Origin: a virus
Taxonomy: Duplodnaviria; Caudoviricetes
IMG/VR virus record: IMGVR_UViG_3300025401_000648
DNA length: 64,000 bases
Direction: 5' to 3' (one strand)
Numbering within the stretch: position 1 is the stretch's first letter; each line of letters begins with the position of its first letter. The position numbers were made by a program, and so were the translations under genes. A model generated the notes under the pieces. It did no database searches, was not told the origin of the DNA, and saw nothing but the letters and a program-made list of their open reading frames with translations. Shown in pieces: positions 22,154 through 58,093 of this stretch.

Positions 22154-22402
22154 ATGGGATTCAAATACTGTTACAATATAGAAAACGCTGTCCGTGAGAT
22201 ACACAGGGCAACAAGAGACGCCACTAACCCACTTAATGATGGGTTTATCATGTGGGGCGCAAAACAAGATTTATATAGACTAAAATGGATTTTAGAAGAT
22301 TCATTGCGTCGTTGTGGATCATTTGGTTCTACGGAACAGGAATGGCTCAAAGAACAAGAGCAAGAAAAAATAATAAAAATTTTAAAAAATGATATTCAAT
22401 AA
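22154..22402 (+). CDS. Hypothetical protein
   Basis: 82-aa ORF directly after promoter. Confidence 0.65.
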   Translation: MGFKYCYNIENAVREIHRATRDATNPLNDGFIMWGAKQDLYRLKWILEDSLRRCGSFGSTEQEWLKEQEQEKIIKILKNDIQ

Positions 22403-22853
22403 AGTAAAACAACTAAAAGCAGATGGTAAAAAGATTGGTATAGTCTTTAGTCAATTTGATTTGCTTCATGCTGGGCACATTGCTATGTTGGCCGAAGTTA
22501 AAAACCATTGTGATTATCTAATTGCAGGTCTACAAACTAGTGCGGCAATTGATCGTCCAGATAGTAAAAATCCGCCAGTACAAAGTATTGTAGAAAGACA
22601 AATCCAATTAGCCGCAGTACGTTATGTGGATGAAATAGTTGTCTACCAAACTGAAAAAGACCTAGAAGATATCTTGCTTACATTGCCAATAGATGTTAGA
22701 ATATTAGGTGTAGAGTACAAAGACAAAGCATTTACCGGCAAAGACATTTGCAATATGCGTGGTATTCAAATTGTCTATAACGGCAGGGATCATAGTTTCT
22801 CATCAAGTAGCCTGCGTAAACGTGTGGCAGAAGCAGAAAGGACAAAGAAATGA
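22389..22853 (+). CDS. Cytidylyltransferase (TagD/glycerol-3-phosphate CT-like)
   Basis: FDLLHAGH (HxGH), AGLQT, ERQIQL..VRYVDEI, GRDHSFSSSSLR. Confidence 0.88.
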   Translation: MIFNKVKQLKADGKKIGIVFSQFDLLHAGHIAMLAEVKNHCDYLIAGLQTSAAIDRPDSKNPPVQSIVERQIQLAAVRYVDEIVVYQTEKDLEDILLTLPIDVRILGVEYKDKAFTGKDICNMRGIQIVYNGRDHSFSSSSLRKRVAEAERTKK

Positions 22854-30381: not shown

Positions 30382-31200
30382 ATGGCAGATCATTATCAAA
30401 CATTAGGCGTAGATAAAAACGCAAGCGCAGACGATATCAAACGAGCATATCGAAAACTTGCCAGTCAGCATCACCCTGATAAAGGTGGCGATACTCGTAA
30501 GTTCCAAGAAGTTGAAGAAGCATATCGTACGCTAAGTAATCCCGAATCTCGAGCACAATACGATAATCCACAGCCACAATTTGGGGGTGGGTTTGGCGGT
30601 ATGCCTCCAGGATTTGACGATATAGTAAGTCAAATGTTTGGGCACAGTAGCCCATTTGGGTGGGGTCGTCCCCAACAACCAAGAAACAGAACATTAAACA
30701 TACAAACTTCTATCACATTGGAAGAAGCATTTTATGGCAAAGACATGATTGCCAATCTGCAATTACCCAGTGGACGAGACCAAGTATTAGAAATTAAAAT
30801 ACCGGCAGGTATCATAGACGGCACAACATTAAGACTAGCCGGCATGGGCGATGACTCTGTGTCTAATGCTCCAAGAGGAGATATACATTTAACAATCAGT
30901 GTTCAACCACACAGTAAATTCACACGCCAAGGTGATGACCTTGTAATGAATCTTAAGTTGAATTGTATAGATGCTATTTTAGGTAAGACTGAAACAGTTA
31001 CTACTATTGATAACAAAACATTGGACATTAAGATCAATCCAGGTACACAGCATGGACAAATGCTAGCGGCATCTGGTTATGGTATGCCTAAAATGGCAGA
31101 CAACCGATTCAAAGGCAGGATGCTGGTACAAATACAAATTGTTATTCCCGCAAATCTTACACCAGCACAATTAGATAAATTAAAAAACTTATATAACTAA
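30382..31200 (+). CDS. dnaJ: DnaJ/CbpA-type chaperone (no Zn finger)
   Basis: DHYQTLGV, IKRAYRKLASQHHPDKGG (HPD), G/F region, C-terminal RGDIHL and GMP motifs. Confidence 0.92.
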   Translation: MADHYQTLGVDKNASADDIKRAYRKLASQHHPDKGGDTRKFQEVEEAYRTLSNPESRAQYDNPQPQFGGGFGGMPPGFDDIVSQMFGHSSPFGWGRPQQPRNRTLNIQTSITLEEAFYGKDMIANLQLPSGRDQVLEIKIPAGIIDGTTLRLAGMGDDSVSNAPRGDIHLTISVQPHSKFTRQGDDLVMNLKLNCIDAILGKTETVTTIDNKTLDIKINPGTQHGQMLAASGYGMPKMADNRFKGRMLVQIQIVIPANLTPAQLDKLKNLYN

Positions 31201-31204
31201 TATT

Positions 31205-31726
31205 ATGAACATAGTAAAATTTCCAGATCCTATACTACGAGAAAAAATAGAAGAATTTGATTTTACCAATCCTCCTATTGATCCAGAGCAGTTAGAAAAA
31301 GATATGATAGAACTTATGTTGAAACATGACGGCATAGGTTTGGCAGCAACACAGGTTGGTATTAGGGCCAGGATGTTTGTCATGGGGCATACTGAATATC
31401 CCGAACAGGCACAGGCATTTTATAACCCCGTAGTTGTTGCTAACACAGAAGCAGTGGAAGATTTAGAGGAAGGGTGTTTGAGTTTTCCAGGCATTTTTGT
31501 TAACATTAAAAGGCCTAAGGCAATTAAAGCTAGATGGCAAAATAGTAAAGGAGAGTGGCAAGAAAGTGAATTCGACGGATACAACTGTAAATGTTTCCTA
31601 CATGAATTAGATCATTTAGAAGGCATTGTGTTTCAAGATAGAGTTAGTACATTAAAATGGTCATTGGCTGTTAAAAAATCAAAACCCAAAAAACCAAGAA
31701 CTATAAGAGTAAAAAGGAAATATTAA
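31205..31726 (+). CDS. def: Peptide deformylase
   Basis: GIGLAATQVG, EGCLSFPG, HELDHLEG. Confidence 0.95.
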   Translation: MNIVKFPDPILREKIEEFDFTNPPIDPEQLEKDMIELMLKHDGIGLAATQVGIRARMFVMGHTEYPEQAQAFYNPVVVANTEAVEDLEEGCLSFPGIFVNIKRPKAIKARWQNSKGEWQESEFDGYNCKCFLHELDHLEGIVFQDRVSTLKWSLAVKKSKPKKPRTIRVKRKY

Positions 31727-31728
31727 TA

Positions 31729-33993
31729 ATGTTAGAACCCAGCAAGGACCTAGAAAAGATTTTTGAGAAGGCAGTATCTGAAGCCTCTGAAAGACATCAT
31801 GAATATATTACCATAGAACATATATTACATAGTATGGTCCAAAATGAATCATTTGTTAATATTCTAAAGGCATTTGGTGCCGATGTGGATACATTAAAAC
31901 AAGATATTACAAACTACGTTGACAATGAGTTAACAGAGCTAGTCAACGAGCAAGCAATTAAGCCTAGAAAAACAAATACTGTTGATAGGATGCTACATCG
32001 TTCTTTTAAAAATGTAATGATGAACAAGCGTCAAATTATTGAACCAGTTGATTGCTTTATCAGTATGCTAGATGAAAAGAAAAGTTTCGCAAACTTTTTT
32101 ATTCAAAAAGCAAAAATAGATAAAGATAAATTTATTACTTTCTTAAACAAAGAATCAATCATCGAGGAAGAAGAAGCCAACGCAGAACATGCGGATCGAT
32201 TGGAAAGAATGATTATACAATTCTGCTTAAATTTAAGTGCCCGTGCTAAGGCCAAAAAGATTGATCCAGTGATTGGTCGAGAAAAAGAGATTGAAGAAAT
32301 CCAATTAGTGTTAGCCCGACGAACCAAGGCCAATGCTATCTTGATTGGAGATCCAGGCGTAGGTAAAACTGCTATCGCTGAAGGACTAGCCCGTAAAATA
32401 CATGAAGGCAAGGTTCCTAAATTTATTCAAAATCATGTGGTCTATAGTTTAGATATCAGTGCCATGCTGGCTGGTAGTAAGTACCGTGGCGATTTTGAAG
32501 AAAGACTAAAAACTGTCATCAATGCTCTTGAAAAGAAAGGCAACTGTATTTTGTTCATTGACGAAGCACACATGATGAGTGGTGCTGGAGCAAGTAGTAG
32601 CGGCAGTAATGATATGGCCAATATGCTTAAATCAGCATTGGGCAAAGGCGGCATTAAGGTTATTGCTAGTACTACCTGGGATGAATATAGAAAGTATTTT
32701 GAAAAGGACCGGGCTTTAATGCGTCGATTCCAACGTGTTACTATCGATGAACCAGATGAAGACACTGCCATTAAAATTATCAAAGGTCTTAGAAAGTATT
32801 ACGAAAAACATCACGGTGTTAAAATTACCAACCAGGCTGTAATTGATTCCGTCAAGTATTCTGTCAAATATATCAGTGATAAAAAATTACCTGATAAGGC
32901 TATTGATCTGATTGACTGTGCCTGTGCTAGATTCAAGATACGTGATGAAGAAAATGGTGTTGTTGATCATGCTGAGATATTATTTGAAATCAGCAAAATT
33001 TCTAATTTGCCACTGGAGCAAATTACTAATAAAGAAACTGCCAACATGGCCAATTTAGAAAAGAACATGAAGGCCAAAGTTTACGGACAAGAAAAGGCCA
33101 TTGAAAGTCTATTGGATAAAGTCTTTATTGCTCAGGCAGGTCTCAAATCATTAAACAAACCTGTAGGCACGTTCCTATTTGTTGGACCAACTGGTGTAGG
33201 TAAGACCGAAGCCGCTAAACAACTTGCCAGCAACCTAGGAGTCAAACTTGTTCGTTTTGATATGAGTGAATATCAGGAACAACATAGTGTATCTAAATTT
33301 ATTGGGGCTCCTCCAGGATATGTTGGTTTTGAAGATAATGCTGGCCAACTTATCACACAGCTACAGGAAAATCCTAATTGTGTGTTGTTGTTAGATGAAG
33401 TAGAAAAAGCTCACCCCAGTGTGCTTACTGTGTTACTACAGTTAATGGACAATGGGTTTATCACAGGCAGTAATGGTAAGAAGGCCGACGGTCGCAATGC
33501 TATTATTATTATGACCAGTAACCTGGGTGCTAGTGATGCTGAAAAGAATTCAGTAGGATTTGGTAGTTTAGAACGTGATGGTGATCCTAAAGATGCTGTC
33601 AACAAATTCTTTGCTCCAGAGTTCCGCAATCGCCTAGATGGTATCATCCGCTTTGGCAAGTTGGATCACGCTACTATGATTATGATTGTTAAGAAGTTTA
33701 TTGACGAGCTTAACCAATTGGTTGGTGATAAAAACATATTTGTCAAACCTACGGAGCTAGCATTAGACTATCTAGTGAACAAGGGATTTGATAGCAAAAT
33801 GGGTGCTCGTCCGTTACAGCGTACTATCGACGATATGATTAAACGCCCATTAAGTAAAGAAATATTGTTTGGCCGGTTAACCAATGGTGGTATTGTTGAA
33901 ATTGATATTGTCGATGACAAAATAATATTAAACTTTATTGATCCATTACCTATTCCAGATAAGCCTGTTGTAGATAGCGCTGAAACTATCTAA
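31729..33993 (+). CDS. clpA: ClpA-like AAA+ chaperone
   Basis: N-domain HEYITIEH; GDPGVGKT/LFIDEAH; GPTGVGKT/LLDEVEK; SVGF loop; FAPEFRNRLD; GARPL. Confidence 0.92.
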   Translation: MLEPSKDLEKIFEKAVSEASERHHEYITIEHILHSMVQNESFVNILKAFGADVDTLKQDITNYVDNELTELVNEQAIKPRKTNTVDRMLHRSFKNVMMNKRQIIEPVDCFISMLDEKKSFANFFIQKAKIDKDKFITFLNKESIIEEEEANAEHADRLERMIIQFCLNLSARAKAKKIDPVIGREKEIEEIQLVLARRTKANAILIGDPGVGKTAIAEGLARKIHEGKVPKFIQNHVVYSLDISAMLAGSKYRGDFEERLKTVINALEKKGNCILFIDEAHMMSGAGASSSGSNDMANMLKSALGKGGIKVIASTTWDEYRKYFEKDRALMRRFQRVTIDEPDEDTAIKIIKGLRKYYEKHHGVKITNQAVIDSVKYSVKYISDKKLPDKAIDLIDCACARFKIRDEENGVVDHAEILFEISKISNLPLEQITNKETANMANLEKNMKAKVYGQEKAIESLLDKVFIAQAGLKSLNKPVGTFLFVGPTGVGKTEAAKQLASNLGVKLVRFDMSEYQEQHSVSKFIGAPPGYVGFEDNAGQLITQLQENPNCVLLLDEVEKAHPSVLTVLLQLMDNGFITGSNGKKADGRNAIIIMTSNLGASDAEKNSVGFGSLERDGDPKDAVNKFFAPEFRNRLDGIIRFGKLDHATMIMIVKKFIDELNQLVGDKNIFVKPTELALDYLVNKGFDSKMGARPLQRTIDDMIKRPLSKEILFGRLTNGGIVEIDIVDDKIILNFIDPLPIPDKPVVDSAETI

Positions 33994-34896: not shown

Positions 34897-37800
34897 ATGT
34901 TTCTAAGAGATATTTTTAAACGTATAGTTGTTGAAGGTGGCAATTTAGAATTACCTAATCCTCAAAACGCCAACGAACCACATCGTGCTGATGAAATAGA
35001 TCTACAGGTTCACAACCGTAGTTTTATAGTTCCAATATTAGATAAACTATTAAAAGACATCAACAATTCATTTAAGGCCAAATATAAAACTCCTATTTGG
35101 AGTCAAGACCTTTTGACCAGCAAACAATTTTTAGGCGGCAGTAGTTTACATTTCTTCAATACCAAAGGCATCAACGATCAACAATTTACTGCCAAGAAGC
35201 CCAAGGTAGGTGATATCGATACGCAGTGCAATAAAGAACAAGAAGAACAAATAAAAGAATTTTTAACTGTTTATACAAATAAACAAATTGGTGACACAAC
35301 GTTATTGGGATTTAGCGCAGGCAATGAACAATTCAATGCCCTGTTTCAATTCCAAGATCCGCCAATGAAAATACAGGTTGATTTTGAGTTTGGCCGATAT
35401 AATCCAGAAACAAACACACCAGATGAGTGGTTTAGATTCAGTCATAATAGTGAATGGAATGATATTGATGCCGGTATCAAGGGAGTGTTCCACAAATATC
35501 TTTATAGATCTTTAAGTGGTATATCGTCACGTAGAGCATATATTGCCAAACTGGCAGGACGTGGTAAAGCACGTGCCATACAAATTTCTGATGAACCAGA
35601 AGAAGTTAACTTAATCTCTTTTGCTGTGGCAAGCAAACAAGGTGGTGGTGTTAGTCAAAAATATAAACCCTATATTGATCCAAATACCAATAAGCCCATG
35701 GTGAAAGATAATTTACCAGTATTGGAGCCAGTAGCGCCTGCTGATAGACAATATGAACAAAGATTAAGCAAACAATTTGAAATGTTTTTTGGCCGTGTTC
35801 CTACTCCTGAAGATTCTAAACTACAACAAAGTTTTTTAGGCACATTAGACTTAATTAACAGATATGTTGAAAATTCTAAAAAGGCAGGAATAGTTGAAGA
35901 TTTCTTAGATATTTGTTTTGAACAAGGTAGTCAAATGATTACCCGAGACGATCCTAAACGTGATGCTGAAACTAAATTTATAGCCATAGATGTAATGCTA
36001 GAAAAATTAGGCATGCGATCCATGCGCCCCAAGGCCATTGAAATGGCCAAGGCCTATGAGCAAGATTATAATGATGTCGAAGCATTTAAGAAAGCCAATC
36101 CAGGTGTATCACAACCACGTGCCGCGATGAAAAAAATGGCTGTTCGAGAAGCTGAAGGTGATGCCCCGGCAGTTAAAGCACAACTACGCAAAGGTATGCC
36201 TCACCTTCGTGATCTAAAACCTGCGGACTTTTTAGATCTAATCGATGAGTTACATGATGGCAATGGTAATTTTAAATTACAAAATATTCCATTAAATGTC
36301 AAAATAGATGGATTTGGTGGACGCTTTGGTAAAAACGCAGATGGTAAACCATTCATGGGCACTAGCCGTACTGAGCCACGTTACGAGCCAGGTTTTCTAA
36401 AGTATCATCAAGAAAAAGGCACAACTGATCCAGAAATATTGGGTCGCGCTCAATCTTTTGACAAGTTGTTTGATGAAATGATGAACGCTATTAAAGTAGT
36501 TGATAGTACTTTAGGTCCAGATTTTCTAAAAGATAGACAGGTCACCTGCGAGGTATTATTTTTACCATTTGCCACACAAACTGAAGAAGGCAAATTAAAA
36601 TTTGTAGGTATTGAATATGATCAACTGCCAAAAGGTGTTAATCTTGTGCTGGTACCTTTTCGCATTGTAGAAGGTAGTACAGGTGAGGACATACCTGACA
36701 GTGACAGAGTTATTCAAGAATTATCAAACTTAGGACAGAATGGTAGTGTGGCATTCATGAGCAACAGGCTGGTACAAAAACAAGGCTTGGATGTTACAGA
36801 AATTATCAACCCGTTAGACAACATTGAAGAATTAAAACAAATTGTCAGCGGAGCCGCAGGTAAACGAGACAAAGCCAGTTTACAACTGCGTAGAGAAGTT
36901 GAGGAAAAGTTAAAGCCTATACAAATAGCATTAGAAAAAGCCATTGATGAAGATCCTAACATTATTGGCAAAGACATGTTGGGGCAAGACTACGAGGGTA
37001 TTGTTATCAATAGTCGATTGGGACCAATCAAGGTCACAAGTCAACGCCAAAAAGATATTATCACCGCTAAGAATGCCGCTAAGAAAAATGCCCGTACAGA
37101 ACGCCCACGCAGTGAAAACAAAACAGCAGTAGTGGCCATTGGCAGTTTTGTTGGACATAAAGGCCATCAACAATTATTTGATTACACAATTAAGAAGGCC
37201 AAGGAATTGAATGGCGACCCGTATTTGTTTATGGGCAATGCTGTAGGAAAAGATGATCCAATTCCAGTCGCTGATAAAATTAAAACTTGGCAAATGCTGT
37301 ATCCACAATATGCCAACAATATCAGTGCTGTAACAATGGAAGGTGGAACACTCATGCAGAAAATCAAACATGAGTTAATCAATCCATTGCCAGGTAAACT
37401 GCCACGCTATGATAACATTATTATTATGGTTGGGGAAGATCAGGCCAAGATGCCAATAGCAGGCGCATTGATGAAAGCAGTTAATAAATTTCCAGGCTAT
37501 GAGAATGTCAAAGTTCATTTAGAAGTTACCCCGCGTGGAACTGGAATGAGTTTTACCAAATTACGTGATATTTTAAAAACAGGTAATCCTGATCAAGCAT
37601 TTCAATTATGGAATGATGCGTTTAACGGTGGTCAGTTTGGTGCCAAACAACTACCACCAGAATGGATACGACACCTAATGGATGTAACAAGGAACGGTAT
37701 GGGAATCAAAGAGCCACAAAAACAACAACCTGTTGCTGAACAGAGGTTGTTTAATTCGTTGTTGCGCCCACAAGTAAAGAAAGAAAAGCAAGGTGTGGCG

Positions 37801-38298
37801 GAGACTACAGGAGATAAACCGTTTGATAACATGATGAAAACTATTAAAACGGGTACAAAAAAACAAGCCACCGCAGATAGACGAGAACAAAAAAAGCAAG
37901 ATCAAGAAAGAACAAGAGCCGCTATTAGCAATATGTTTGGCAATAGTATGGATCACTTAAAAAATTTAAAAATTAAAGAGCGAAGTGTGGCAGAAAAGAT
38001 GATGCCTGCCGGTAATTTTTCTAGCACACCCAAAAACAAACTAGGCCCAGCAGGACAGCTAAAGGGCAAGATGAAGCGTCCAGCACGGGCAGGTGATCTA
38101 GTGGGTGGTGCTGAAGAAAGTTATGACGGCGGTAGTTATACCTCACACAAACCAGGATTTGGTGGACAAGGTAGATACACTGATTCTGTGAGAACACAGT
38201 TTAATATTGGTGAAAACAAACTAGTGCCTATTGGTGAAGATCTAGAATTAAAAATGGCCGAAGCTGTGTTAAAACTGATGGAAAATACCTTAAAATGA
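34897..38298 (+). CDS. Multidomain nucleotidyltransferase: pol-beta-type NTase + ligase-type (KxDG) NTase + HxGH cytidylyltransferase/NMNAT-like domain
   Basis: GGSS...GDIDT...QVD; KIDG...CEVLF...EGIVI...IKV; GSFVGHKGH; low-complexity C-tail with QGVAE. Confidence 0.7.
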   Translation: MFLRDIFKRIVVEGGNLELPNPQNANEPHRADEIDLQVHNRSFIVPILDKLLKDINNSFKAKYKTPIWSQDLLTSKQFLGGSSLHFFNTKGINDQQFTAKKPKVGDIDTQCNKEQEEQIKEFLTVYTNKQIGDTTLLGFSAGNEQFNALFQFQDPPMKIQVDFEFGRYNPETNTPDEWFRFSHNSEWNDIDAGIKGVFHKYLYRSLSGISSRRAYIAKLAGRGKARAIQISDEPEEVNLISFAVASKQGGGVSQKYKPYIDPNTNKPMVKDNLPVLEPVAPADRQYEQRLSKQFEMFFGRVPTPEDSKLQQSFLGTLDLINRYVENSKKAGIVEDFLDICFEQGSQMITRDDPKRDAETKFIAIDVMLEKLGMRSMRPKAIEMAKAYEQDYNDVEAFKKANPGVSQPRAAMKKMAVREAEGDAPAVKAQLRKGMPHLRDLKPADFLDLIDELHDGNGNFKLQNIPLNVKIDGFGGRFGKNADGKPFMGTSRTEPRYEPGFLKYHQEKGTTDPEILGRAQSFDKLFDEMMNAIKVVDSTLGPDFLKDRQVTCEVLFLPFATQTEEGKLKFVGIEYDQLPKGVNLVLVPFRIVEGSTGEDIPDSDRVIQELSNLGQNGSVAFMSNRLVQKQGLDVTEIINPLDNIEELKQIVSGAAGKRDKASLQLRREVEEKLKPIQIALEKAIDEDPNIIGKDMLGQDYEGIVINSRLGPIKVTSQRQKDIITAKNAAKKNARTERPRSENKTAVVAIGSFVGHKGHQQLFDYTIKKAKELNGDPYLFMGNAVGKDDPIPVADKIKTWQMLYPQYANNISAVTMEGGTLMQKIKHELINPLPGKLPRYDNIIIMVGEDQAKMPIAGALMKAVNKFPGYENVKVHLEVTPRGTGMSFTKLRDILKTGNPDQAFQLWNDAFNGGQFGAKQLPPEWIRHLMDVTRNGMGIKEPQKQQPVAEQRLFNSLLRPQVKKEKQGVAETTGDKPFDNMMKTIKTGTKKQATADRREQKKQDQERTRAAISNMFGNSMDHLKNLKIKERSVAEKMMPAGNFSSTPKNKLGPAGQLKGKMKRPARAGDLVGGAEESYDGGSYTSHKPGFGGQGRYTDSVRTQFNIGENKLVPIGEDLELKMAEAVLKLMENTLK

Positions 38299-38607: not shown

Positions 38608-38973
38608 ATGAGAGCAAAAGAATTTATCCGTGAATCATTAGGGTCACAAAACATGGCCAAGGATCAAGTGACTAGTATTCCTAATGCTCACTATTTTCCT
38701 GATTTGGATAACAGTAGTGGTTATGAAGCATATCGTTGGGGTGTGGCTTTGGCAGGTATGCCAGATTACCCAATGCCGCAAGATGGCACTACAGGACAAA
38801 AATTAGTTACAATTGGCTATACTGAAGCAGATGATTTAATTATAGACAGCACCAGTAAATTATTTGGTGCTAGAAAAGTAAGATTGACCCCACGCGGTAG
38901 TACAGAGTTGAAAGACACAAACAAAACTAGCCCCGTGGCTAATTGGATGGGAAAAGAGAAAAACAATGACTAA
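38608..38973 (+). CDS. Hypothetical protein with CTS-like N-terminus (MRAKEFIRES)
   Basis: Resembles T4 internal-protein capsid-targeting sequence MKTYQEFIAE. Confidence 0.7.
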   Translation: MRAKEFIRESLGSQNMAKDQVTSIPNAHYFPDLDNSSGYEAYRWGVALAGMPDYPMPQDGTTGQKLVTIGYTEADDLIIDSTSKLFGARKVRLTPRGSTELKDTNKTSPVANWMGKEKNND

Positions 38974-41287
38974 CGAATTTAAAAAAATCTCCAAGGGTAC
39001 AGAAACCCGTTATATTCTAGAAAGCGAAACTGCTGGTGCCACTGGCAGTGGATCTATTGCCACTGTGCCAGGTGGTATGGGTGGTGTTCGTAAACGTGGC
39101 GGAAACTTGTTAGCTCAGGAAGGCAATAAAGAAAAAGTTCCTGCTACTAAGCCAAGAAACTTTGTGGCCAAGAATGCCAAGATGGGCGGTGCTGGCGCAC
39201 ACAAGGATAAGAAGAAGGCTGAGAAGCAGGGTGATGTAAAACATCGTAAACCATTTGCCGAACAAGGTGTGGCGGAAGGCTCCGGAGGCAATTGGTATAT
39301 TCGGGTCAACGGTAAAATCCTCAATGACACCAAGTATAAGCCAGAGATTTTCTCATCTGAGGACGAGGCAAGAAGTCACGCAATGAAACTTGCTGATAAG
39401 AAACGCATACCGTTGTCACAAATTAAATTAACAAAAAGTTGGATGGATGCTCCTGAGCAAGGTGTGGCGGAAGGCAGTATATCTGACTTATTGAATAAAG
39501 ATTCAGCATCACCAAAATTCAATGACCATCCAGCACCACTCAAAACAAAACATTCTGGTAGCATTCCAACGCCCTACGAAAAAGGTAGATTAGATGCTCA
39601 TAGAAAAAAGCCATATAACAATATCCACAAAGACAAGCAAGATGCGGAAGATTATAAAACTGGTTATGGGCACGTTAAATCTAAGCAAGGTGTGGCGGAA
39701 GGCTCGGGAAAGAATGTAGTCAAGTCAGTCAAGGTAGGAAACTTTAGACACGATTTGGTCAATACTGGAATGGGTTGGCAGGTTCGTATCTATAACGGTG
39801 ATGAACTTTATGATACTGGGTTGAGCAAGAACTCTGAAGAAAAAGGTTTAGCCGCATTGGATAACTCAGTGGCATACACTAAAAAGCAACTAAACATTAA
39901 AGAGCAAGGTGTGGCGGAAGGCGCTCCAGAACTATTGAAGAAAGAAATGCCACTACATCGTCATGCTGAAAAATTATTAGCACAAAATGGCGTCAGTAAA
40001 GATGATCCAGATTATCGCCATCATCTTGGTAACACGATAAAACATCTTCGTCAGTTTGGTAATATTGATTTGATTAACAAGAGTGACGAGCAAGGTGTGG
40101 CGGAAGAGTGGAGTCAAAAATATAAATCTAGTATCAACTGCTCACATCCAAAAGGTTTCTCACAAAAGGCTCACTGTGCAGGCAAGAAAAAGCACACGGA
40201 AAGTATGATGACAATGGAAGCAGTATGTCCTGATTGTGGTATGTGCCAAACACACGGCAACTTGAATGAGATCAAGAAAGGTGCTAAAGACAGTAATGGA
40301 TTTACCAAATGCTGGCCTGGACATCATGCGGCAGGTACTAAGAAAGGTAAGAACGGTGGACAAGTTCGTAACTGTGTGCCTAATGAAAGTTTGTCAGAAG
40401 GTTGGGGTATGGGCGGTTATGAAACTGCCAAGGTACAGCCAATTGAACCAGGCAAAGGCATTGATAAAGAAATAGGTGAAAATCCAGATTGGTACAATGA
40501 CGAAGCAAATAGCATGAGCACTGCTCAACTAAAGAGTTTGGTCAAACATGCTACTAAGCTCCGCCATGCTGTCAAACAAATGCAAGCACAAGGCGATACA
40601 TTAGAACCTTGGCAACAAAGCAAAGTTACCAAAGCCGCAGATTATTTAGATGCTGTATTCAATGCTGTAGATGACGAACATGACATGGACGAAGAGGAAG
40701 GAGCAGGCGGAATGTTAAGCCCTATATCAGAAGCTCCAATTGATATGGATCCGTCCGAACCAATGAATCCAATGATATACGGACATCAAGGTGTTAATCC
40801 TGCTAAACTAAAAGATCGAATGATGAGGGCCGCTGGTCAATTAAAAGATCTAGCACAAAGAGCAGAATCAGGAAGTGCGTTAGGCTGGGAAAGTATCACT
40901 CGTCACTTTGAAGAATTGGCAATGAACATTGAACAAATACGTCATGCTTTAGAAGAGCTGGCTAACAAACGTAAGAAAGGTGGCATTGGTTCAAGAGGTA
41001 TTGATCCACACATTGGCGAAAGTGATCATCCTGATGAAAAAGAAGATAAAGCACTTATTCGTAAAATGGTCAAGGCACAAGCATTGAAACAAGAAGACAG
41101 TTATATGGCTGAGCTACAGGCCAAACTAGCTGAAAAGATTCCCAAGAATGCTCCTGTAGATGTTTATATCAAAGATTTTGAAAAATCCAATGCTCCACAG
41201 TTCCGTGGTAAGACAAAGGAAAAACGTCGTCAAATGGCCATTGCCGCCAGTTACGGTGCTAAAAATCCTAGCAAGAAGAAAAAATGA
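38966..41287 (+). CDS. Modular polyprotein, probable internal head protein
   Basis: 773 aa; five QGVAE linkers separating unrelated ~60-70 aa modules, followed by basic Cys/Lys-rich modules. Confidence 0.75.
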   Translation: MTNEFKKISKGTETRYILESETAGATGSGSIATVPGGMGGVRKRGGNLLAQEGNKEKVPATKPRNFVAKNAKMGGAGAHKDKKKAEKQGDVKHRKPFAEQGVAEGSGGNWYIRVNGKILNDTKYKPEIFSSEDEARSHAMKLADKKRIPLSQIKLTKSWMDAPEQGVAEGSISDLLNKDSASPKFNDHPAPLKTKHSGSIPTPYEKGRLDAHRKKPYNNIHKDKQDAEDYKTGYGHVKSKQGVAEGSGKNVVKSVKVGNFRHDLVNTGMGWQVRIYNGDELYDTGLSKNSEEKGLAALDNSVAYTKKQLNIKEQGVAEGAPELLKKEMPLHRHAEKLLAQNGVSKDDPDYRHHLGNTIKHLRQFGNIDLINKSDEQGVAEEWSQKYKSSINCSHPKGFSQKAHCAGKKKHTESMMTMEAVCPDCGMCQTHGNLNEIKKGAKDSNGFTKCWPGHHAAGTKKGKNGGQVRNCVPNESLSEGWGMGGYETAKVQPIEPGKGIDKEIGENPDWYNDEANSMSTAQLKSLVKHATKLRHAVKQMQAQGDTLEPWQQSKVTKAADYLDAVFNAVDDEHDMDEEEGAGGMLSPISEAPIDMDPSEPMNPMIYGHQGVNPAKLKDRMMRAAGQLKDLAQRAESGSALGWESITRHFEELAMNIEQIRHALEELANKRKKGGIGSRGIDPHIGESDHPDEKEDKALIRKMVKAQALKQEDSYMAELQAKLAEKIPKNAPVDVYIKDFEKSNAPQFRGKTKEKRRQMAIAASYGAKNPSKKKK

Positions 41288-44947: not shown

Positions 44948-44997
44948 GCGAGCCATAAATCGCATCATGGTATTTGAGAGCCGTAAATCTCAAGGAG
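44948..44997 (+). promoter_or_regulatory. Tandem RNA hairpins with identical-type loop in DNA polymerase leader
   Basis: GCGA-GCCATAAA-TCGC and TTGAGA-GCCGTAAA-TCTCAA, immediately followed by GGAG SD. Confidence 0.65.
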
Positions 44998-45006
44998 AAA
45001 AATAAT

Positions 45007-47676
45007 ATGAGTTATGTTGATGCCATTTGGGATCGCGAAAAAGACATTGTCAAAGTCATTGAGCGTGATCCAAAACAGGGTAGACTCTATCAAGAGTACA
45101 ATGCCCGCTATCTATTTTATTATCCAGACCAACGAGGAAAATTCAAAAGCATCTTTGGAGAAAACTTATCCAAAGTAACTGCTCGTAGCTGGAAAGAATT
45201 CATTAAAGAACAAAAAATCCATTCTTCTCATAAACTATATGAGAGCGATATCAATCCTGTATTCCGTTGTTTAGAAGAAAACTATCTTGGCAAAGATGCT
45301 CCAAAATTAAATGTAGCATTTTTTGATATTGAGGTGGACTTTGATCCAGAACGTGGCTACGCAAGTCCAGACGATGCGTTTATGCCAATTACTGCGATTG
45401 CTGTCCACCTACAATGGATGGATACTCTAGTATGCCTTGCTGTTCCTCCAAAGACTTTAACCATGGAACAAGCACAAGATCAAGTTAAAGAATTTCCCAA
45501 CACTATACTGTTTGAAACAGAATACGAAATGTTGGATACATTCTTAAATCTAATTGAAGATGCTGATGTGCTAAGTGGATGGAACAGTGAAGGGTTTGAT
45601 ATTCCCTATACTGTTAATCGTGTTACAAAAGTTCTAAGTAAAGAAGATACCCGTAGATTTTGTCTTTGGGGAGCCATGCCAAAGAAACGTGAATTTGAAA
45701 AATATGGAAAAACTGCTGTTACCTATGACCTTGTTGGTCGTGTTCACCTTGATAGTCTCGAGTTGTACAGAAAATATACCTATGAAGAACGCCACACATA
45801 TCGACTGGATGCAATTGGAGAGATGGAAATAGGCGAAAGCAAGACTGTTTACGAAGGTACGTTGGACCAGTTATACAATAATGATTTCCGTAAATTTATT
45901 GAATATAATAGACAAGACTGTGCCTTGCTTGATAAGTTGGATAAAAAGTTAAAATTCATTGACCTTGCTAATACTGTTGCTCACGAAAATACTGTGTTAC
46001 TACAAACTACAATGGGTGCTGTGGCTGTTACAGAACAGGCTATTGTAAATGAAGCACATCACAGAGGTATGATGGTACCAAGTCGCCCCAAACGAGATGA
46101 TACCGTAAGTAATCAGGCGGCAGGTGCGTATGTTGCTTATCCAAAAAAAGGCATCCATGACTACATTGGATCAATGGATATTAACAGTTTGTACCCGTCT
46201 GTGATTCGTGCGCTGAACATGGGTCCAGAAACGATTGTGGGTCAGTTACGCCAAGATTATACTAAAGAAGAAATTGAAAACAAAATGGCCAAGAAAGAAA
46301 GTTTCGCTGGCGCATGGGAAGGTAAGTTTGGCAGTAATGAATATGAATTTGTTATGAACCGAGATCGAAGTCATGATATTATCATTGATTGGGAGAATGG
46401 CGAAACCACTATTATGAGTGGTGCTCAAATTTATGAACTTATCTTTGAAAGTAATAATCCATGGATGCTAAGTGCCAATGGTACTATCTTTACCTATGAA
46501 AAAGAAGGTATCATTCCTGGTTTACTAAAACGTTGGTATAGTGAACGTAAAGAAATGCAGGCCAAGCTCAAAGAAGCAATTAAAGCGGAGAATAAAATTG
46601 AAGAAGAATACTGGGACAAAAGACAACTGGTTAAAAAAATTAACCTCAATAGCCTATATGGTGCTATTCTTAACGCTGGTTGTAGGTTCTTTGATAATCG
46701 TATTGGACAATCCACAACTCTTTCCGGACGTGGTATCGCCCGCCATATGGCCGCAAAGATAAATGAAGTTATCACTGGAGAGTACAACCATATTGGTAAA
46801 AGCATTATCTATGGTGATACTGACTCTGCCTACTTTAGTGCTTATTCATCTTTAAAGAACGAAATTGCCAAAGGTGAAATTCCTTGGAACAAGGACACAG
46901 TGGTTCAACTATATGATACCATTGCTGAAGAAGTAAATTCAACATTCCCAGATTTCATGCTAGAAGCACATCACTGTCCTCGCAGCCGTGGCGATGTTAT
47001 CCGTGCTGGTCGTGAAATTGTTGCTATCAAAGGCCTGTTTATTACCAAGAAGCGTTATGCCGTACTGTATTATGACAAGGAAGGCAAACGCAGTGACGTA
47101 GATGGCAAGCCAGGTAAGATCAAGGCCATGGGCTTGGATTTGAAACGCAGTGACACTCCTGAATTTATGCAGAAGTTTTTGGAAGAAGTTCTTACCAAAG
47201 TACTCAATGGTAGTGAAGAAAAAGAAATTCTAGAGATGATCAGTGAATTCCGTACAGAATTTAAAGCCCGACCAGGTTGGGAGAAAGGAAGTCCAAAACG
47301 TGCCAACAACATTACAGAATATCAAGAAAAAGAGAAGAAATTTGGCAAGGCTAATATGCCTGGTCATGTTAGAGCAAGTATTAATTGGAATACGCTCAAA
47401 AGAATGAATGGTGACAAATACAGTCAGCAAATTGTTGATGGTATGAAAGTTATCGTTTGTAAACTAAAGGGTAACCCCTTGGGATATACATCAGTAGCAT
47501 ATCCTGTGGACGAACTACGGTTGCCTAAATGGTTTCAAGAACTTCCGTTTGATCATGAAGAAATGGAAGCTACCATTATTAACAATAAGATTGAAAACCT
47601 TATTGGCGTATTAGAATGGGACTTGAGCAGTACTACTGAGACTAATACGTTTGGCAACTTGTTTTCGTTTGATTAA
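45007..47676 (+). CDS. Family B DNA polymerase (T4 gp43-like)
   Basis: Exo FFDIEVD, GWNSEGFD; motif A DINSLYPS, motif B KKINLNSLYG, motif C YGDTDS; start moved to ATG 45007. Confidence 0.96.
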   Translation: MSYVDAIWDREKDIVKVIERDPKQGRLYQEYNARYLFYYPDQRGKFKSIFGENLSKVTARSWKEFIKEQKIHSSHKLYESDINPVFRCLEENYLGKDAPKLNVAFFDIEVDFDPERGYASPDDAFMPITAIAVHLQWMDTLVCLAVPPKTLTMEQAQDQVKEFPNTILFETEYEMLDTFLNLIEDADVLSGWNSEGFDIPYTVNRVTKVLSKEDTRRFCLWGAMPKKREFEKYGKTAVTYDLVGRVHLDSLELYRKYTYEERHTYRLDAIGEMEIGESKTVYEGTLDQLYNNDFRKFIEYNRQDCALLDKLDKKLKFIDLANTVAHENTVLLQTTMGAVAVTEQAIVNEAHHRGMMVPSRPKRDDTVSNQAAGAYVAYPKKGIHDYIGSMDINSLYPSVIRALNMGPETIVGQLRQDYTKEEIENKMAKKESFAGAWEGKFGSNEYEFVMNRDRSHDIIIDWENGETTIMSGAQIYELIFESNNPWMLSANGTIFTYEKEGIIPGLLKRWYSERKEMQAKLKEAIKAENKIEEEYWDKRQLVKKINLNSLYGAILNAGCRFFDNRIGQSTTLSGRGIARHMAAKINEVITGEYNHIGKSIIYGDTDSAYFSAYSSLKNEIAKGEIPWNKDTVVQLYDTIAEEVNSTFPDFMLEAHHCPRSRGDVIRAGREIVAIKGLFITKKRYAVLYYDKEGKRSDVDGKPGKIKAMGLDLKRSDTPEFMQKFLEEVLTKVLNGSEEKEILEMISEFRTEFKARPGWEKGSPKRANNITEYQEKEKKFGKANMPGHVRASINWNTLKRMNGDKYSQQIVDGMKVIVCKLKGNPLGYTSVAYPVDELRLPKWFQELPFDHEEMEATIINNKIENLIGVLEWDLSSTTETNTFGNLFSFD

Positions 47677-55253: not shown

Positions 55254-55705
55254 ATTTGCTCGACCAAATGGGTCGTAAACGTGTTGTACTAGATCGAGAA
55301 GGAAATGAACCTTATCTTATACGCTATTATGTCTTTCTCAAAGACCGAAAGTTATTTCCATTTAATGTGTTTTTACACAAGTTTCTTAAGTCAGACCCCG
55401 ATGATGTGCATGATCATCCTTGGCCTTACGCTACACTAATTTTACGAGGTGGATATTACGAATGGATTCCAAAATTTAATGACAAAAAAGAAATGATTGG
55501 TGAAATTCGTAAATGGAGAGGCCCTGGTCATTTTCGTATATCTCGACCATCAAGCTATCATCGTATTGAATTACAAGAAGGAGTTACTCCTTGGACTCTG
55601 TTTATGCCTGGACCACAACAGCGTGAATGGGGATTTTTAGTTAATAATCAGTGGATACATAATGAACAATATTTGAAGGAAAGAAATGAACAAGCTCATA
55701 CTTAA
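55226..55705 (+). CDS. Cupin-like protein
   Basis: HDHPW..TLILRGGYYE...YHRIEL metal-binding double-stranded beta-helix pattern. Confidence 0.55.
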   Translation: MSKLADKILNLLDQMGRKRVVLDREGNEPYLIRYYVFLKDRKLFPFNVFLHKFLKSDPDDVHDHPWPYATLILRGGYYEWIPKFNDKKEMIGEIRKWRGPGHFRISRPSSYHRIELQEGVTPWTLFMPGPQQREWGFLVNNQWIHNEQYLKERNEQAHT

Positions 55706-56186
55706 TGATCAGGAGTACAAAGGCCTTGTTGGCAAAATATGTCGGGATATCGCCGTTAGCGGTTGGCGCCCGGATTATATTGTAGGCATCGGTCGTGGTG
55801 GGTTGTTGCCTGCTGTCATGATCAGTCAATATTTTGGTATCAAAATGTGTAGTTTAGATATCAGTCTGCGTGATGGTGGCGATACTGTTAGTAATTTTAG
55901 TATGAGTGAAGATGCGTTTAGCGGCAAAAAAATTCTAATCGTCGACGACATCAACGATACAGGAGCTACAATTAACTGGCTAATGAATGACTGGCGTAGC
56001 TCATGCCAACCCGAGCATCAGGTATGGGACGAAGGTGTGTGGAATGACAATGTTAAATTTGCTGTGGTTGTGGATAACTGGAGTAGCGCATGTCAAGTCA
56101 CTATGGATTTCACAGGGATGGAAGTAAACAAATCAGAACAAGACGTATGGATTGAATTTCCTTACGAGGAATGGTGGACCAAATGA
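55686..56186 (+). CDS. Purine phosphoribosyltransferase-like (Gpt-like)
   Basis: PDYIVGIGRGGLLPA, ILIVDDINDTGAT, WIEFPYE. Confidence 0.85.
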   Translation: MNKLILNDQEYKGLVGKICRDIAVSGWRPDYIVGIGRGGLLPAVMISQYFGIKMCSLDISLRDGGDTVSNFSMSEDAFSGKKILIVDDINDTGATINWLMNDWRSSCQPEHQVWDEGVWNDNVKFAVVVDNWSSACQVTMDFTGMEVNKSEQDVWIEFPYEEWWTK

Positions 56187-56593
56187 AAAAGACTGTACAG
56201 GATAAAATCTTTGATGGGCCGGATCATATCGATTGGGCTGATACCCCATGGACTGACTTAGAACGTGATGATTTTCATGTGGCTATCTACAGAGACAAAT
56301 ACCCCTGTACACCCGGACATTTATTGTTTGTGCCTAAATACAATACCATAGGAGTACTAAATGATGCGTTTGAAGATGCTGTTAGATACGGCAAAAAAAT
56401 GGTGGAAACCGGAGAATGGGACGGTTACAATATTGGACTTAATATGGGCCAGGCTGCTGGACAAACTATCAACTGGCCTCATGTCCATCTTATACCACGT
56501 AGGCGAGGTGACGTCGACGATCCGACGGGCGGCGTCAGAAATACAATACCAGGCAAAGGCAATTATAAATCGCCGGACTTTAGAGCAGATTAA
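56183..56593 (+). CDS. HIT-family nucleotide hydrolase
   Basis: DKYPCTPGHLLFVPK, YNIGLNMGQAAGQTINWPHVHLIPR. Confidence 0.9.
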   Translation: MKKTVQDKIFDGPDHIDWADTPWTDLERDDFHVAIYRDKYPCTPGHLLFVPKYNTIGVLNDAFEDAVRYGKKMVETGEWDGYNIGLNMGQAAGQTINWPHVHLIPRRRGDVDDPTGGVRNTIPGKGNYKSPDFRAD

Positions 56594-56636
56594 TCCTATT
56601 GAGTATGAATGGAGCTCTAATAACCATACAGGATTT

Positions 56637-57029
56637 ATGGCGCAAACTATTGGACCAGCCTATGGATATTATAATACAGCAGTTGGTAGTCAAGCAGGTC
56701 ATAGTTATCAACCTAATAATGTACAGTTTAATTCCAGTGGGCCTAAGACTGTGTTAACCATTACCGGAGACGGTGATGTTATTTGGACAGGAAAACCCAG
56801 TGAGGCCGCAGACATTCTAGTACGTAGTTTTCAAATGTCTGTAGAAGATGCCAAGGGTGTTACTAAAGCCGCTCGTCGCAGATATTATGCTCTAGCCTGT
56901 CGCAATATTTTGAGCAAAGCAGAAGATATGGAATATGAAGAGTTCCTTGCTTTCCTAAATAGAGAAGTGTATAATAGAGAACGTAAGGTCATTTTAGATT
57001 CATTAAAAGGAGAAGACAATGCTACATGA
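56637..57029 (+). CDS. Hypothetical protein
   Basis: ORF track 56361; 5' part shadows the HIT gene, so start moved to ATG 56637. Confidence 0.6.
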   Translation: MAQTIGPAYGYYNTAVGSQAGHSYQPNNVQFNSSGPKTVLTITGDGDVIWTGKPSEAADILVRSFQMSVEDAKGVTKAARRRYYALACRNILSKAEDMEYEEFLAFLNREVYNRERKVILDSLKGEDNAT

Positions 57030-57249
57030 TTCAATTAAAAATACATATAAAGAAATGGTCATTAAAGAAGATTCAGGATTTCGACTGGTGTTGAAGAAAC
57101 ATGAAGTGTTGAGTCCTAAAGGTCTTTTTAGTGTTAATTTAGAACAACAAAATTTACGAGATGGTGAAATCTCAGATGTTTCAACATATAACTTCTTTAT
57201 GACCAAAGAAGAAATTCAAGCACTAGCACATGGATTAACACATGAGTAA
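57019..57249 (+). CDS. Hypothetical protein
   Basis: 76 aa, SD AAGGAG. Confidence 0.7.
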   Translation: MLHDSIKNTYKEMVIKEDSGFRLVLKKHEVLSPKGLFSVNLEQQNLRDGEISDVSTYNFFMTKEEIQALAHGLTHE

Positions 57250-58093
57250 GATTAAAATAGCAGAACTATTTTATAGTATACAGGGAGAAGGACGTTATAT
57301 GGGCGTACCAAGTATCTTCTTAAGGACTTTCGGCTGCAATTTCCGCTGTGCAGGATTTGGTATGCCTAAAGGGCAATTGAGCGCAGAAGCAGAAGACATT
57401 GCCACCGTAGTGCATTTATATAACAAATATGAAGATTTGCCGCTAGTATCAACTGGTTGTGATAGTTATGCTAGTTGGCATCCTGATTTTAAAAACCTAA
57501 GTCCTATGTTGACTACGGATGCTATTGTTGAACGCATCATGGAGATATTGCCCTTCAATGAGTGGCGCAATGAACATCTTGTTATCACAGGTGGTGAACC
57601 GCTATTAGGTTGGCAACGTGCTTATCCTGACCTGTTGGATCATCCTAAAATGTCTAAACTAAAAGAAATTACATTTGAAACAAATGGTACTCAAAAGTTA
57701 ACACAAGATTTTAAAAATTATCTTGGAGTATGGAATGGCTTACCTAGGCAAAAACGAGAAATTACATTCAGTGTAAGTGCTAAGTTGCCAGCAAGTGGTG
57801 AAAAGTGGGAAGAAGCTATTCTTCCAGAAGTTGTTTGTGAATATGAAGAAGTAGGCACAGCATATCTTAAATTTGTGGTAGCCACAGAAGAGGACGTTAA
57901 AGATGCAGAACAAGCAATTGAACAATATAGAGCGGCTGGCTTTAAAGGTCACATATATCTTATGCCTGTTGGCGGTGTTGAGTCTGTTTACAATCTCAAT
58001 GCTAAATCCGTTGCCCTTGCCGCAATGAAACGCGGCCTACGTTATAGTGATCGACTACAAGTGCCCTTGTTCAAGAACGAGTGGGGCACTTGA
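57242..58093 (+). CDS. queE: 7-carboxy-7-deazaguanine synthase-like radical SAM enzyme
   Basis: ELFYSIQGEG, FLRTFGCNFRC...GCDS, VITGGEP, FETNGT, LMPVG, RLQVPLF; ~30-aa insert before third Cys. Confidence 0.85.
   Translation: MSKIKIAELFYSIQGEGRYMGVPSIFLRTFGCNFRCAGFGMPKGQLSAEAEDIATVVHLYNKYEDLPLVSTGCDSYASWHPDFKNLSPMLTTDAIVERIMEILPFNEWRNEHLVITGGEPLLGWQRAYPDLLDHPKMSKLKEITFETNGTQKLTQDFKNYLGVWNGLPRQKREITFSVSAKLPASGEKWEEAILPEVVCEYEEVGTAYLKFVVATEEDVKDAEQAIEQYRAAGFKGHIYLMPVGGVESVYNLNAKSVALAAMKRGLRYSDRLQVPLFKNEWGT

Follow-up and report, generated by a model that had tools for sequence, protein, structure and literature searches.

The 64,000-nt stretch of DNA analyzed here (the window) is the IMG/VR virus record IMGVR_UViG_3300025401_000648 (Caudoviricetes), and its source is a large, T4-related phage. 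At 34897-38298 on the + strand it encodes a polyprotein precursor of 1133 amino acids (P0001), in which three unrelated nucleotidyltransferase folds are joined: a Pol-beta-type domain (d1), a ligase-type domain (d2) and a HIGH-superfamily domain (d3), followed by a variable tail. The protein starts with a leader that resembles the capsid-targeting sequence (CTS) of phage T4, and motifs of the kind cut by the T4 prohead protease stand at the borders of its modules. The reading that we favor, plausible but tentative, is that of an RNA-end repair kit ejected into the host, analogous to the pairing of RlaP with an RNA ligase. A preliminary description of this DNA had placed a 1133-residue open reading frame (ORF) at the same position; the frame was indeed single, uninterrupted and open throughout, and AGGA lies 8 bases 5′ of its ATG.

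Three nucleotidyltransferase folds in one protein

The preliminary description had also claimed three unrelated nucleotidyltransferase folds in the protein. AlphaFold2 models were made of d1 (residues 1-425) and of d2 together with d3 (residues 426-945). The first had a predicted local distance difference test score (pLDDT) of 95.1 and a predicted template modeling score of 0.91, with low confidence at residues 1-8; the second had a pLDDT of 94.0. Models and fold searches agreed with the claim, and domain by domain all three predicted superfamilies were matched. All informative fold matches of d1 were enzymes of the Pol-beta superfamily, and the claim of three folds is correct.

Conservation was surveyed in alignments of 100 (d1), 62 (d2) and 65 (d3) diverse sequences, with a mean column identity of 26-45%. 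Invariant or nearly so were G81, S82, D106, D108, D162, E164 and K195 in d1; K469, D471, G472, R476, E552, E700, G701 and K712 in d2; and G753, H754, G756, H757 and R890 in d3. The motif positions of the preliminary description were exact: GDID (G105-D108) starts at nt 35209, KIDG (K469) at 36301, EGIVI (E700) at 36994 and GHKGH (G753) at 37153. GGSS (G80-S83), QVD (D162), CEVLF (E552) and IKV (K712) were also found, as were the VAE sites of the tail at residues 946, 967 (as QGVAE) and 1031. Judged by these alignments, the motifs are not due to chance.

In the structural comparison by VIA, the d1 model matched TUT7 (Z 8.3), Trf4 (7.5), Pol beta (7.4, over 172 residues) and TdT (7.3). Foldseek found a 'polymerase nucleotidyl transferase domain' protein in the AlphaFold Database (7e-7). 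Its top matches in the PDB were all Pol beta or poly(A) polymerase (E about 1e-3 to 1e-2), and poly(A) polymerases came first among the Swiss-Prot structural matches. The best characterized structural matches of d1 are RNA 3′-end transferases; no RlaP was seen among its fold matches. The model has the palm-type alpha/beta fold, and the hallmarks of the Pol-beta superfamily, namely hG[GS], the DxD pair and a third acidic residue on the following strands, are all present, with a spacing of 24 residues from GS to DxD, which is longer than usual. By its model, d1 is a divergent nucleotidyltransferase of this superfamily, with a fold match that is moderate, not strong.

The d2 model was most similar to the Naegleria RNA ligase 5cot (Z 10.5, 195 aligned residues), followed by T. 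brucei REL1 (1xdn, 9.8) and T4 Rnl2 (1s68, 9.4); many DNA ligases (8-9), the Pnkp ligase (8.5) and Trl1 (about 8) came further down. Foldseek reported Trl1 (2.3e-4) and T4 Rnl1 (9e-4). By its model, d2 has the adenylyltransferase fold of RNA and DNA ligases with the superfamily motifs I, III, IV and V, and Lys469 would be linked covalently to a nucleoside monophosphate. In the model, no oligonucleotide/oligosaccharide-binding (OB) fold follows d2; motif V leads into a single long helix and then into the Rossmann-like d3.

Pfam gave only noise for the 100 d1 sequences. Noise was also all that was obtained for d2 with the Pfam ligase families (RNA_ligase, RNA_lig_T4_1, DNA_ligase_A_M and mRNA_cap_enzyme), where one of the 62 sequences gave RNA_ligase at E 0.075. 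In PHROGs, d1 and d2 each match a family of unknown function. Searches of PDB chains by sequence, with the whole protein and with the d1 and d2 profiles, returned nothing meaningful. Since the RlaP profile does not recognize d1 and no Pfam ligase family recognizes d2, the two are new sequence families inside known folds.

The third domain is the chief puzzle of the polyprotein. Its closest relative is NadM-type NMNAT (VIA Z 11.8), followed by M. jannaschii NMNAT (11.5), NaMNAT (11.4), PPAT (11.0) and FAD synthetase (10.0). Foldseek gave FADS, PPAT and ATP sulfurylase at probability 1.00, and the PHROG match was 'cytidyltransferase' (2.5e-11). The d3 profile matched RibF (3e-4), with the HxGH motifs of both aligned; it was the sole informative match to the PDB by sequence. 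At the HxGH motif, Pfam FAD_syn reached 19-22 bits, below its cut-off of 27. HxGH stands at the first strand-helix turn, and a C-terminal ISxTxxR-type motif is present as S885-F-T887-K-L-R890, in which R890 was invariant and T887 nearly so (n=65), and both were invariant in a 20-sequence alignment. By these matches, d3 is an NMNAT/PPAT/FAD-synthetase-like HIGH domain. The structural scores of PPAT, NaMNAT and FADS are close to that of NMNAT and do not tell the possible acceptors apart.

The polyprotein family is very large. An exhaustive search found 1034 cluster representatives at E<=1e-3, among them 636 at E<=1e-10, and there were 661 matches among the scored candidates of a collection of 5.8 billion proteins. 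The members are purely metagenomic or from phages. Megablast against cultured phages gave no match, and tblastn against them gave only single modules at 24-27% identity. The nearest virus record, a 45-kb fragment (G001), does not contain the polyprotein gene, and a 524-kb virus record (G002) has only tail modules in common with it. In three-domain relatives, residues 1 to about 945 are collinear and 40-75% identical; the tail differs. A lead to DUF6267 (Atlas) was dropped, as PF19782 matched none of the cassette-bearing phage records and was never reported by hmmscan.

Among 267 relatives, about 150 have all three domains. The others are d1 (56), d3 (19), d2d3 (13), d1d2 (10) and d2 (3). The domains are also found as separate genes. 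In one split contig (L003), the order d1-d2-d3 is kept by a minimal d1 of 242 amino acids, a d2 of 306 and a CTP_transf_like d3 of 204; in another (L004), a d1d2 fusion is followed by a d3 of 374. The cultured T4-like Xanthomonas phage BUDD and Stenotrophomonas phage Ps15 have a four-gene cassette in which d1 is followed by an unrelated gene, then by d2 and finally by a small HIGH-type nucleotidyltransferase. The profile E-values in BUDD were 2.6e-78 for d1 and 3.6e-40 for d2. The cassette HIGH genes of both phages carry GRFQPxHxGH and score above the Pfam CTP_transf_like cut-off, and that of Ps15 is annotated as NMNAT; for split d3 homologues, weak CTP_transf_like matches are on record. Separate d1, d2 and d3 genes thus stand adjacent in the same order, and the modules therefore work together.

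The unrelated gene between d1 and d2 (gene B; L001 5849-6850, L030 3127-4071) showed no similarity by local BLAST between BUDD and Ps15 or to the window, and Pfam was silent. By eye it has D...E-x-K-like segments, which could mark a nuclease.

In 157 three-domain proteins, extra sequence is confined to three places: before d1, in the d1-d2 linker and after d3. Throughout these proteins the gap between d2 and d3 is no longer than 20 residues. This pattern of insertions implies that d2-d3 is one unit and d1 a separable partner. Behind d3, the VAE sites bound two small modules (residues about 970-1033 and 1034-1133), both of which are present in other proteins: L015-L022 match the polyprotein only at about 950-1035, and P0203 and P0227 only at 1026-1133. 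The tails of relatives vary and include HD_4/HD (hydrolase-like for guanosine tetraphosphate, ppGpp), Amidoligase_2, a second NTP_transf_2 and DUF6934 (P0013, P0166, P0167 and P0056).

Leader, candidate cleavage sites and probable head packaging

The T4 prohead protease gp21 recognizes L/I-x-E (PMC9026906), and the CTS concept, with the T4 internal proteins and Alt as packaged head proteins, is established (PMC9958956). Close relatives of the polyprotein all start with a leader of the form M-x-L-x-[DE]-[FIL]-[FI], which is followed by a variable stretch and then by an invariant E-G-G-N. The residue just before the putative cut (P1) is Glu in 181 of the 182 leader-bearing d1 sequences. At P3 we counted Leu 119 times, Ile 55 times, Val five times and Met once, so that the rule is kept in 180/181 sequences and by Leu or Ile in 174/181. 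Leaderless homologues, including those of BUDD, Ps15, Vibrio phage Va1 and several metagenomic proteins, start exactly with M-G-G-N. Therefore, the Glu and the residues upstream of it are dispensable for the enzyme. A cultured phage with a leader-bearing homologue is Campylobacter phage CP220, in whose gp100 the leader ends in L-E ahead of GGN.

In the split contig L003, each of the three separate enzymes has its own, very similar leader, M-x-x-F-K-x-[FY]-L..E, and that of d2 ends at the position equivalent to the linker site of the fusions. The module encoded just upstream of the polyprotein, of 124 amino acids, is fused before d1 in three relatives (P0024, P0030 and P0036); there, the internal leader is lost and the site L-M-E|GGN is kept. 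The linker between d1 and d2 lacks conservation, both of sequence and of length; nevertheless, 141/141 proteins have [LIVM]-x-E only a few residues ahead of the segment at which conservation of d2 begins. Thirteen relatives have small extra modules in this linker, and such inserts are flanked by [LIVM]-x-E sites.

Six small, neighboring and otherwise unrelated ORFs on the + strand (starts 34521, 38608, 41284, 41565, 41960, the last at an internal Met, and 44635) have similar leaders, M-[KRF]-x-x-[DE]-[FL]-[FIV], which recall the T4 CTS. The window has six copies of QGVAE, of which one is in the polyprotein and the other five are in the next large ORF. Two viral records that have the tail modules in common with the polyprotein encode a T4-type Peptidase_S77.

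That next ORF (38966-41287, +; 773 amino acids) has its five [EK]-Q-G-V-A-E at residues 102, 167, 243, 316 and 378, spaced by 62-76, and its first half is divided by them into bead-like modules of about 62-76 residues. One of these modules weakly resembles the first tail module of the polyprotein (28% identity, E 0.27). The 145-residue ORF at 41565 resembles, by eye, the N-terminal extension that is fused to the polyprotein in P0068.

From this strong comparative evidence, we infer that the polyprotein is directed into the prohead, where it would be cleaved. By analogy with the T4 internal proteins and Alt, the precursor would yield d1, d2-d3 and small peptides. Given T4-style signals for head loading and cutting, the polyprotein is probably injected with the DNA. 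The preliminary description had suggested that it may be virion-delivered; such delivery is made probable by the CTS-like leader, the conserved (L/I/V)-x-E at module borders and the leaderless homologues, which start at the predicted mature end.

The opposite possibility is that the polyprotein is not packaged at all and is an ordinary cytoplasmic multi-enzyme, in which the leader and the Glu-containing linkers are structural and no proteolysis occurs. Its likelihood was judged independently of the readings of function, and we consider it rather unlikely. The gene stands between chaperone/lysis genes and replication genes, outside any head module, and no TATAAATA promoter was seen. The homologues of BUDD, Ps15 and Va1 do without a leader, and our literature search found no packaging data for any member of the family. 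However, a structural role would not account well for a leader that is gained or lost exactly at the E|GGN junction and is present in its own copy on each separate module. Nor would it fit the same leader motif on six unrelated neighbors, the repetition of QGVAE in the next ORF and the restriction of insertions to the predicted cut sites.

Possible functions of the enzymes

In the reading that we favor, the leader (residues 1-13) would probably direct the precursor into the prohead, where a T4-type protease would cut after the Glu of (L/I/V)-x-E. The cuts would fall behind E13, within the linker that joins d1 to d2, and at each VAE of the tail. The products would be a d1 nucleotidyltransferase starting at G14-G15-N16, an uncut ligase-HIGH enzyme and small tail modules. 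On ejection they would enter the host along with the DNA, and they could act before any phage gene is translated. Most likely, the enzymes would mend broken RNA, probably tRNA cleaved by host ribonucleases: d1 would add lost nucleotides to the 3′-OH end as RlaP does, and d2 would seal 5′-phosphate/3′-OH ends through a Lys469-AMP intermediate. The NMNAT-like adenylyltransferase d3, obligatorily coupled to the ligase, would make a pyrophosphate-linked nucleotide product for the repair, with NAD+ as the leading candidate.

The known counterpart is the pair of RlaP and an RNA ligase, in which RlaP adds 1-2 nucleotides to damaged RNA 3′ ends and ligation restores the tRNA; this pair is common in jumbo phages (PMC7824862; bioRxiv 10.64898/2025.12.29.696909). 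RNA is favored as the substrate by the top structural matches of d2, which are RNA ligases, and by the RNA 3′-end transferases among the matches of d1. At 1.2 kb from the split d2-d3 pair there is a HAD_SAK_2 phosphatase (Pfam 2.4e-24), whose family takes its name from RNA repair, and the d1 gene of Vibrio phage Va1 has an Rnl1 and a CCA-adding enzyme no more than 9 kb away. Repair of RNA or tRNA ends, as the preliminary description had proposed, is consistent with this RlaP-like pairing of nucleotidyltransferase and ligase and with the genes near the split version and in Va1. Delivery of finished repair enzymes by the capsid would make sense against defenses that halt translation by cutting tRNA. 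As for d3, the KptA branch of RNA repair requires NAD+ (PMC9503650), and the domain may be linked to repair by supplying NAD+ to this branch or as an AMP donor for the fused ligase. The preliminary description held that the substrates cannot be read from the sequence, and we agree.

A number of observations weigh against this reading. The RlaP profile PF10127 matched none of the 100 d1 sequences at E<=1, and d1 aligns over a longer span to Pol X DNA polymerases (172-183 residues) than to RNA transferases. No kinase or phosphoesterase for the healing of 2′,3′-cyclic-phosphate/5′-OH ends was found in the polyprotein or its immediate neighbors, and HIGH-type enzymes have no place in known RNA repair schemes. 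BUDD and Ps15 have a canonical Rnl1 elsewhere in their genomes, and BUDD also an Rnl2, so the cassette is not their only ligase. On the side of packaging, the P3 residue of the leader site in this polyprotein is V and not L/I, and the conserved E before GGN could be structural. The 64-kb window lacks a gene for a prohead protease, and it shows no enrichment of the T4 late promoter TATAAATA (2 seen against 7.5 expected). The literature search found no experiment or virion proteome for any family member.

The best surviving alternative in function is a kit for the ends of DNA, in which d1 would be a Pol X-like gap filler or terminal transferase and d2 a DNA nick or end ligase, as with Pol X and ligase of African swine fever virus (ASFV) or with bacterial LigD. 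The pair would protect phage DNA attacked by host nucleases at entry, or mend it. We consider it unlikely. The longest alignments of d1 are those to Pol beta, TdT, Pol lambda, Pol mu and ASFV Pol X (164-183 residues, Z 6.7-7.4), and d2 matches DNA ligases including ASFV ligase and LigD at Z 8-9 and has, as in DNA ligases, an Arg after the KxDG of motif I; delivery together with DNA would also suit a DNA substrate. However, d2 scores RNA ligases (Z 10.5-9.4) above DNA ligases (at most 9.1), and no OB domain stands behind its adenylyltransferase domain. Neither an 8-kDa, lyase nor fingers domain of Pol X was detected in the polyprotein, and the neighbors in relatives point to RNA repair.

It is also conceivable that the target is a nucleotide cofactor. 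In that case, d3 would be an NMNAT proper and restore the NAD+ lost to NADase defenses such as Thoeris, SIR2 or TIR, and d1 and d2 would make or recycle nucleotide intermediates and not act on polynucleotides. The top matches of d3, NadM and the archaeal NMNATs (Z 11.8-11.5), agree with this, as do the GRFQPxHxGH signature in BUDD and Ps15 and the annotation in Ps15, and phages are known to resort to NAD+ salvage (PMC7824862, PMC9503650). Still, we think it quite unlikely. PPAT, NaMNAT and FADS score nearly as high as NMNAT, no partner of NAMPT or phosphoribosyl-pyrophosphate type is fused or adjacent, and the obligatory fusion to a ligase fold is left unexplained. Moreover, Ps15 has a canonical NadV/NatV pair elsewhere (PMC9025141), which makes the cassette enzyme redundant for salvage; simple NAD+ salvage is therefore unlikely to explain the cassette fully. 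The NAD+ regeneration suggested in the preliminary description thus agrees with NadM-type NMNAT as the nearest relative of d3 and is weakened by the coexistence of the split cassette with NadV/NatV in Ps15.

A more speculative extension, which we regard as improbable, is that the ligase-HIGH enzyme may perform an undescribed chemistry on nucleic acid ends. The HIGH domain might transfer a nucleotide to a 5′- or 3′-phosphate of a polynucleotide (pre-activation or capping), or NAD+ made in situ might be the AMP donor of the ligase, and the ejected trio could repair or mark RNA in a cell where defenses have already shut down the ATP or NAD+ pool and translation. If this were true, the capsid would bring a new repair pathway into the cell in finished form.

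A host take-over toxin set, whose nucleotidyltransferases would nucleotidylate host tRNA acceptor ends or proteins for early shut-down (MenT/AbiEii- or AMPylase-like), is very unlikely: weak structural matches of d1 to AbiEii/MenT toxins and the effector-type domains in the tails of relatives (HD_4, Amidoligase_2 and a second NTP_transf_2, a pattern of polyvalent injected proteins; PMC5512222) speak for it, but the toxin matches are weaker than those to poly(A) polymerases, terminal uridylyltransferases and Pol X, the ligase domain would have no role, and no specific support was found for the protein nucleotidylation considered in the preliminary description.

If the RNA-end repair kit is real, a very large clade of environmental giant phages has pre-made nucleic-acid repair enzymes in its capsids. 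They could act even after the host blocks translation by cutting tRNA, which would answer how a phage escapes defenses that prevent the synthesis of its own counter-measures. The finding also defines two families (d1 and d2) that are, by sequence, outside Pfam models and solved structures, and an obligatory ligase-HIGH fusion. With the rules of leader and sites, the proteins that uncultured T4-related giant phages eject could be listed from sequence. The family is abundant, strongly conserved, uncharacterized and directly testable.

Genome setting and comparison with known systems

Features of the polyprotein gene and its surroundings in the window.
Feature	Position (nt)	Residues	Strand	Basis or remark
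DnaJ - (peptide deformylase) - ClpB-type double-AAA chaperone block	30382-33993		+	just 5′ of the polyprotein; loci L031, L032
Upstream ORF of 124 amino acids	34521..34895		+	own CTS-like leader
N-terminal leader, T4 CTS-like	34897..34935	1-13	+	ends V-V-E13 before invariant G14-G15-N16
d1, Pol-beta-fold nucleotidyltransferase with C-terminal helical subdomain (predicted)	34936..36096	~14-400	+	AlphaFold2 model, fold searches
d1 catalytic set	35137-35142; 35212-35220; 35380-35382	G81 S82; D106/D108; D162	+	alignment
d1-d2 linker	36097..36171	~401-425	+	candidate cut sites V417-R-E419, E-A-E421
d2, ligase-type covalent nucleotidyltransferase (predicted)	36172..37101	426-735	+	AlphaFold2 model, fold searches
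d2 motifs I; III; IV; V	36301-36303; 36550-36552; 36994-36999; 37030-37032	K469; E552; E700-G701; K712	+	alignment
d3, HIGH-superfamily Rossmann-like nucleotidyltransferase (predicted)	37102..37716	736-940	+	AlphaFold2 model, fold searches
d3 motifs HxGH; SFTKLR	37156-37167; 37549-37566	H754-H757; S885-R890	+	alignment
Variable tail	37717..38295	941-1133	+	VAE sites at nt 37732-37740, 37795-37803, 37987-37995

The closest counterparts of the family-B DNA polymerase of the window (44974-47676) are 44-52% identical to it and belong to the giant phages Sinorhizobium Phosso, Agrobacterium Atu_ph07 and Vibrio 2.275.O and to E. coli phages of 350-380 kb. Around the polyprotein gene, the order is tail-fiber genes, endolysin and holin, then DnaJ, peptide deformylase and ClpB-type ATPase, small uncharacterized ORFs and a replication module. 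The synteny of chaperone block and polyprotein is retained even in a relative of 39% identity (P0166), and in L032 a gene for an NT5C-type HAD nucleotidase lies just 3′ of the polyprotein, after an ORF of 48 amino acids. No tRNA genes were found in the window.

A second, ordinary HIGH-type enzyme is encoded at 22389-22853 (+), in a position unconnected with the polyprotein gene; it is a CTP_transf_like protein of 154 amino acids with an HAGH motif (Pfam 1.5e-9, above the cut-off). At 55686-58093 (+), genes for a phosphoribosyltransferase (Pfam 3.6e-13), a HIT-domain protein (3e-9) and a radical S-adenosylmethionine (SAM) protein are grouped. The N-terminal SIQGEG of the latter recalls QueE, which suggests a pathway for 7-deazaguanine or another base modification. 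BUDD and Ps15 have queuosine-type genes at a distance of a few kb from their split cassettes, and in Campylobacter phage CP220 the d1 homologue is adjoined by a radical-SAM gene. The gene at 10079-14923 (+) encodes a collagen-like tail fiber of 1614 amino acids and forms, with the next two, a block of raised G+C content (0.43-0.48 against about 0.38) with strong GC skew.

Our literature search found the combination of the three enzymes and the constant ligase-HIGH fusion described nowhere. The closest functional parallel is RlaP (PF10127) with an RNA ligase, as described by Carruthers et al. (bioRxiv 2025) and, so far as it is reported in PMC7824862, by Burroughs and Aravind (2016). There, a Pol-beta nucleotidyltransferase is coupled to an ATP-dependent ligase fold in large phages, where the pairing is common. 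The same coupling is seen here, with d1 fused or adjacent to d2 in fusions and split operons, and a HAD 'Swiss-army-knife' phosphatase is likewise found near one split version. Unlike the RlaP modules, the polyprotein has a d1 with 0/100 matches to PF10127, a d2 outside the Pfam ligase families, an attached HIGH enzyme, and apparent head-targeting and cleavage signals.

Similar comparisons can be made domain by domain. With the nick-sealing RNA ligases Rnl2, REL1 and Naegleria Rnl5, and with T4 Rnl1 and Trl1, d2 shares the adenylyltransferase fold and motifs I, III, IV and V with the conserved Lys, Glu, Glu-Gly and Lys; it differs from them in the absence of accessory N- and C-terminal domains, in a helical insertion of about 50 residues between motifs III and IV, and in its C-terminal HIGH partner. 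Like NadM and the archaeal NMNATs, PPAT, NaMNAT and the FMNAT of RibF, d3 has a Rossmann-like fold, HxGH and a C-terminal S-x-T-x-x-R (Z up to 11.8). In contrast to NadM-type enzymes, its loop before HxGH is one residue shorter (G-x-F-x-G-H-x-G-H), its score is below the Pfam cut-off and it is fused to a ligase domain.

For the mode of delivery, the parallel is with T4 internal proteins IPI-III and Alt, which share the short hydrophobic/acidic leader ending in (L/I)-x-E and further Glu sites at the termini; delivery with the DNA is suggested by analogy. The polyprotein differs from them in that three enzymes and small modules are chained in one precursor, from which they would be cut, and that P3 is Val. 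It also resembles polyvalent proteins (Iyer et al. 2017, PMC5512222) in having a conserved core, swapped effector domains (HD_4, Amidoligase_2, NTP_transf_2 and DUF6934) and a predicted entry with the DNA. The domain trio is not among the combinations that our search found described, and targeting apparently depends on a T4-type CTS and protease sites and not on a MuF- or portal-associated fusion. By these analogies, the polyprotein would unite the workings of two known systems, namely those of an RlaP/ligase repair module and those of an injected head or polyvalent protein with a CTS leader and protease processing.

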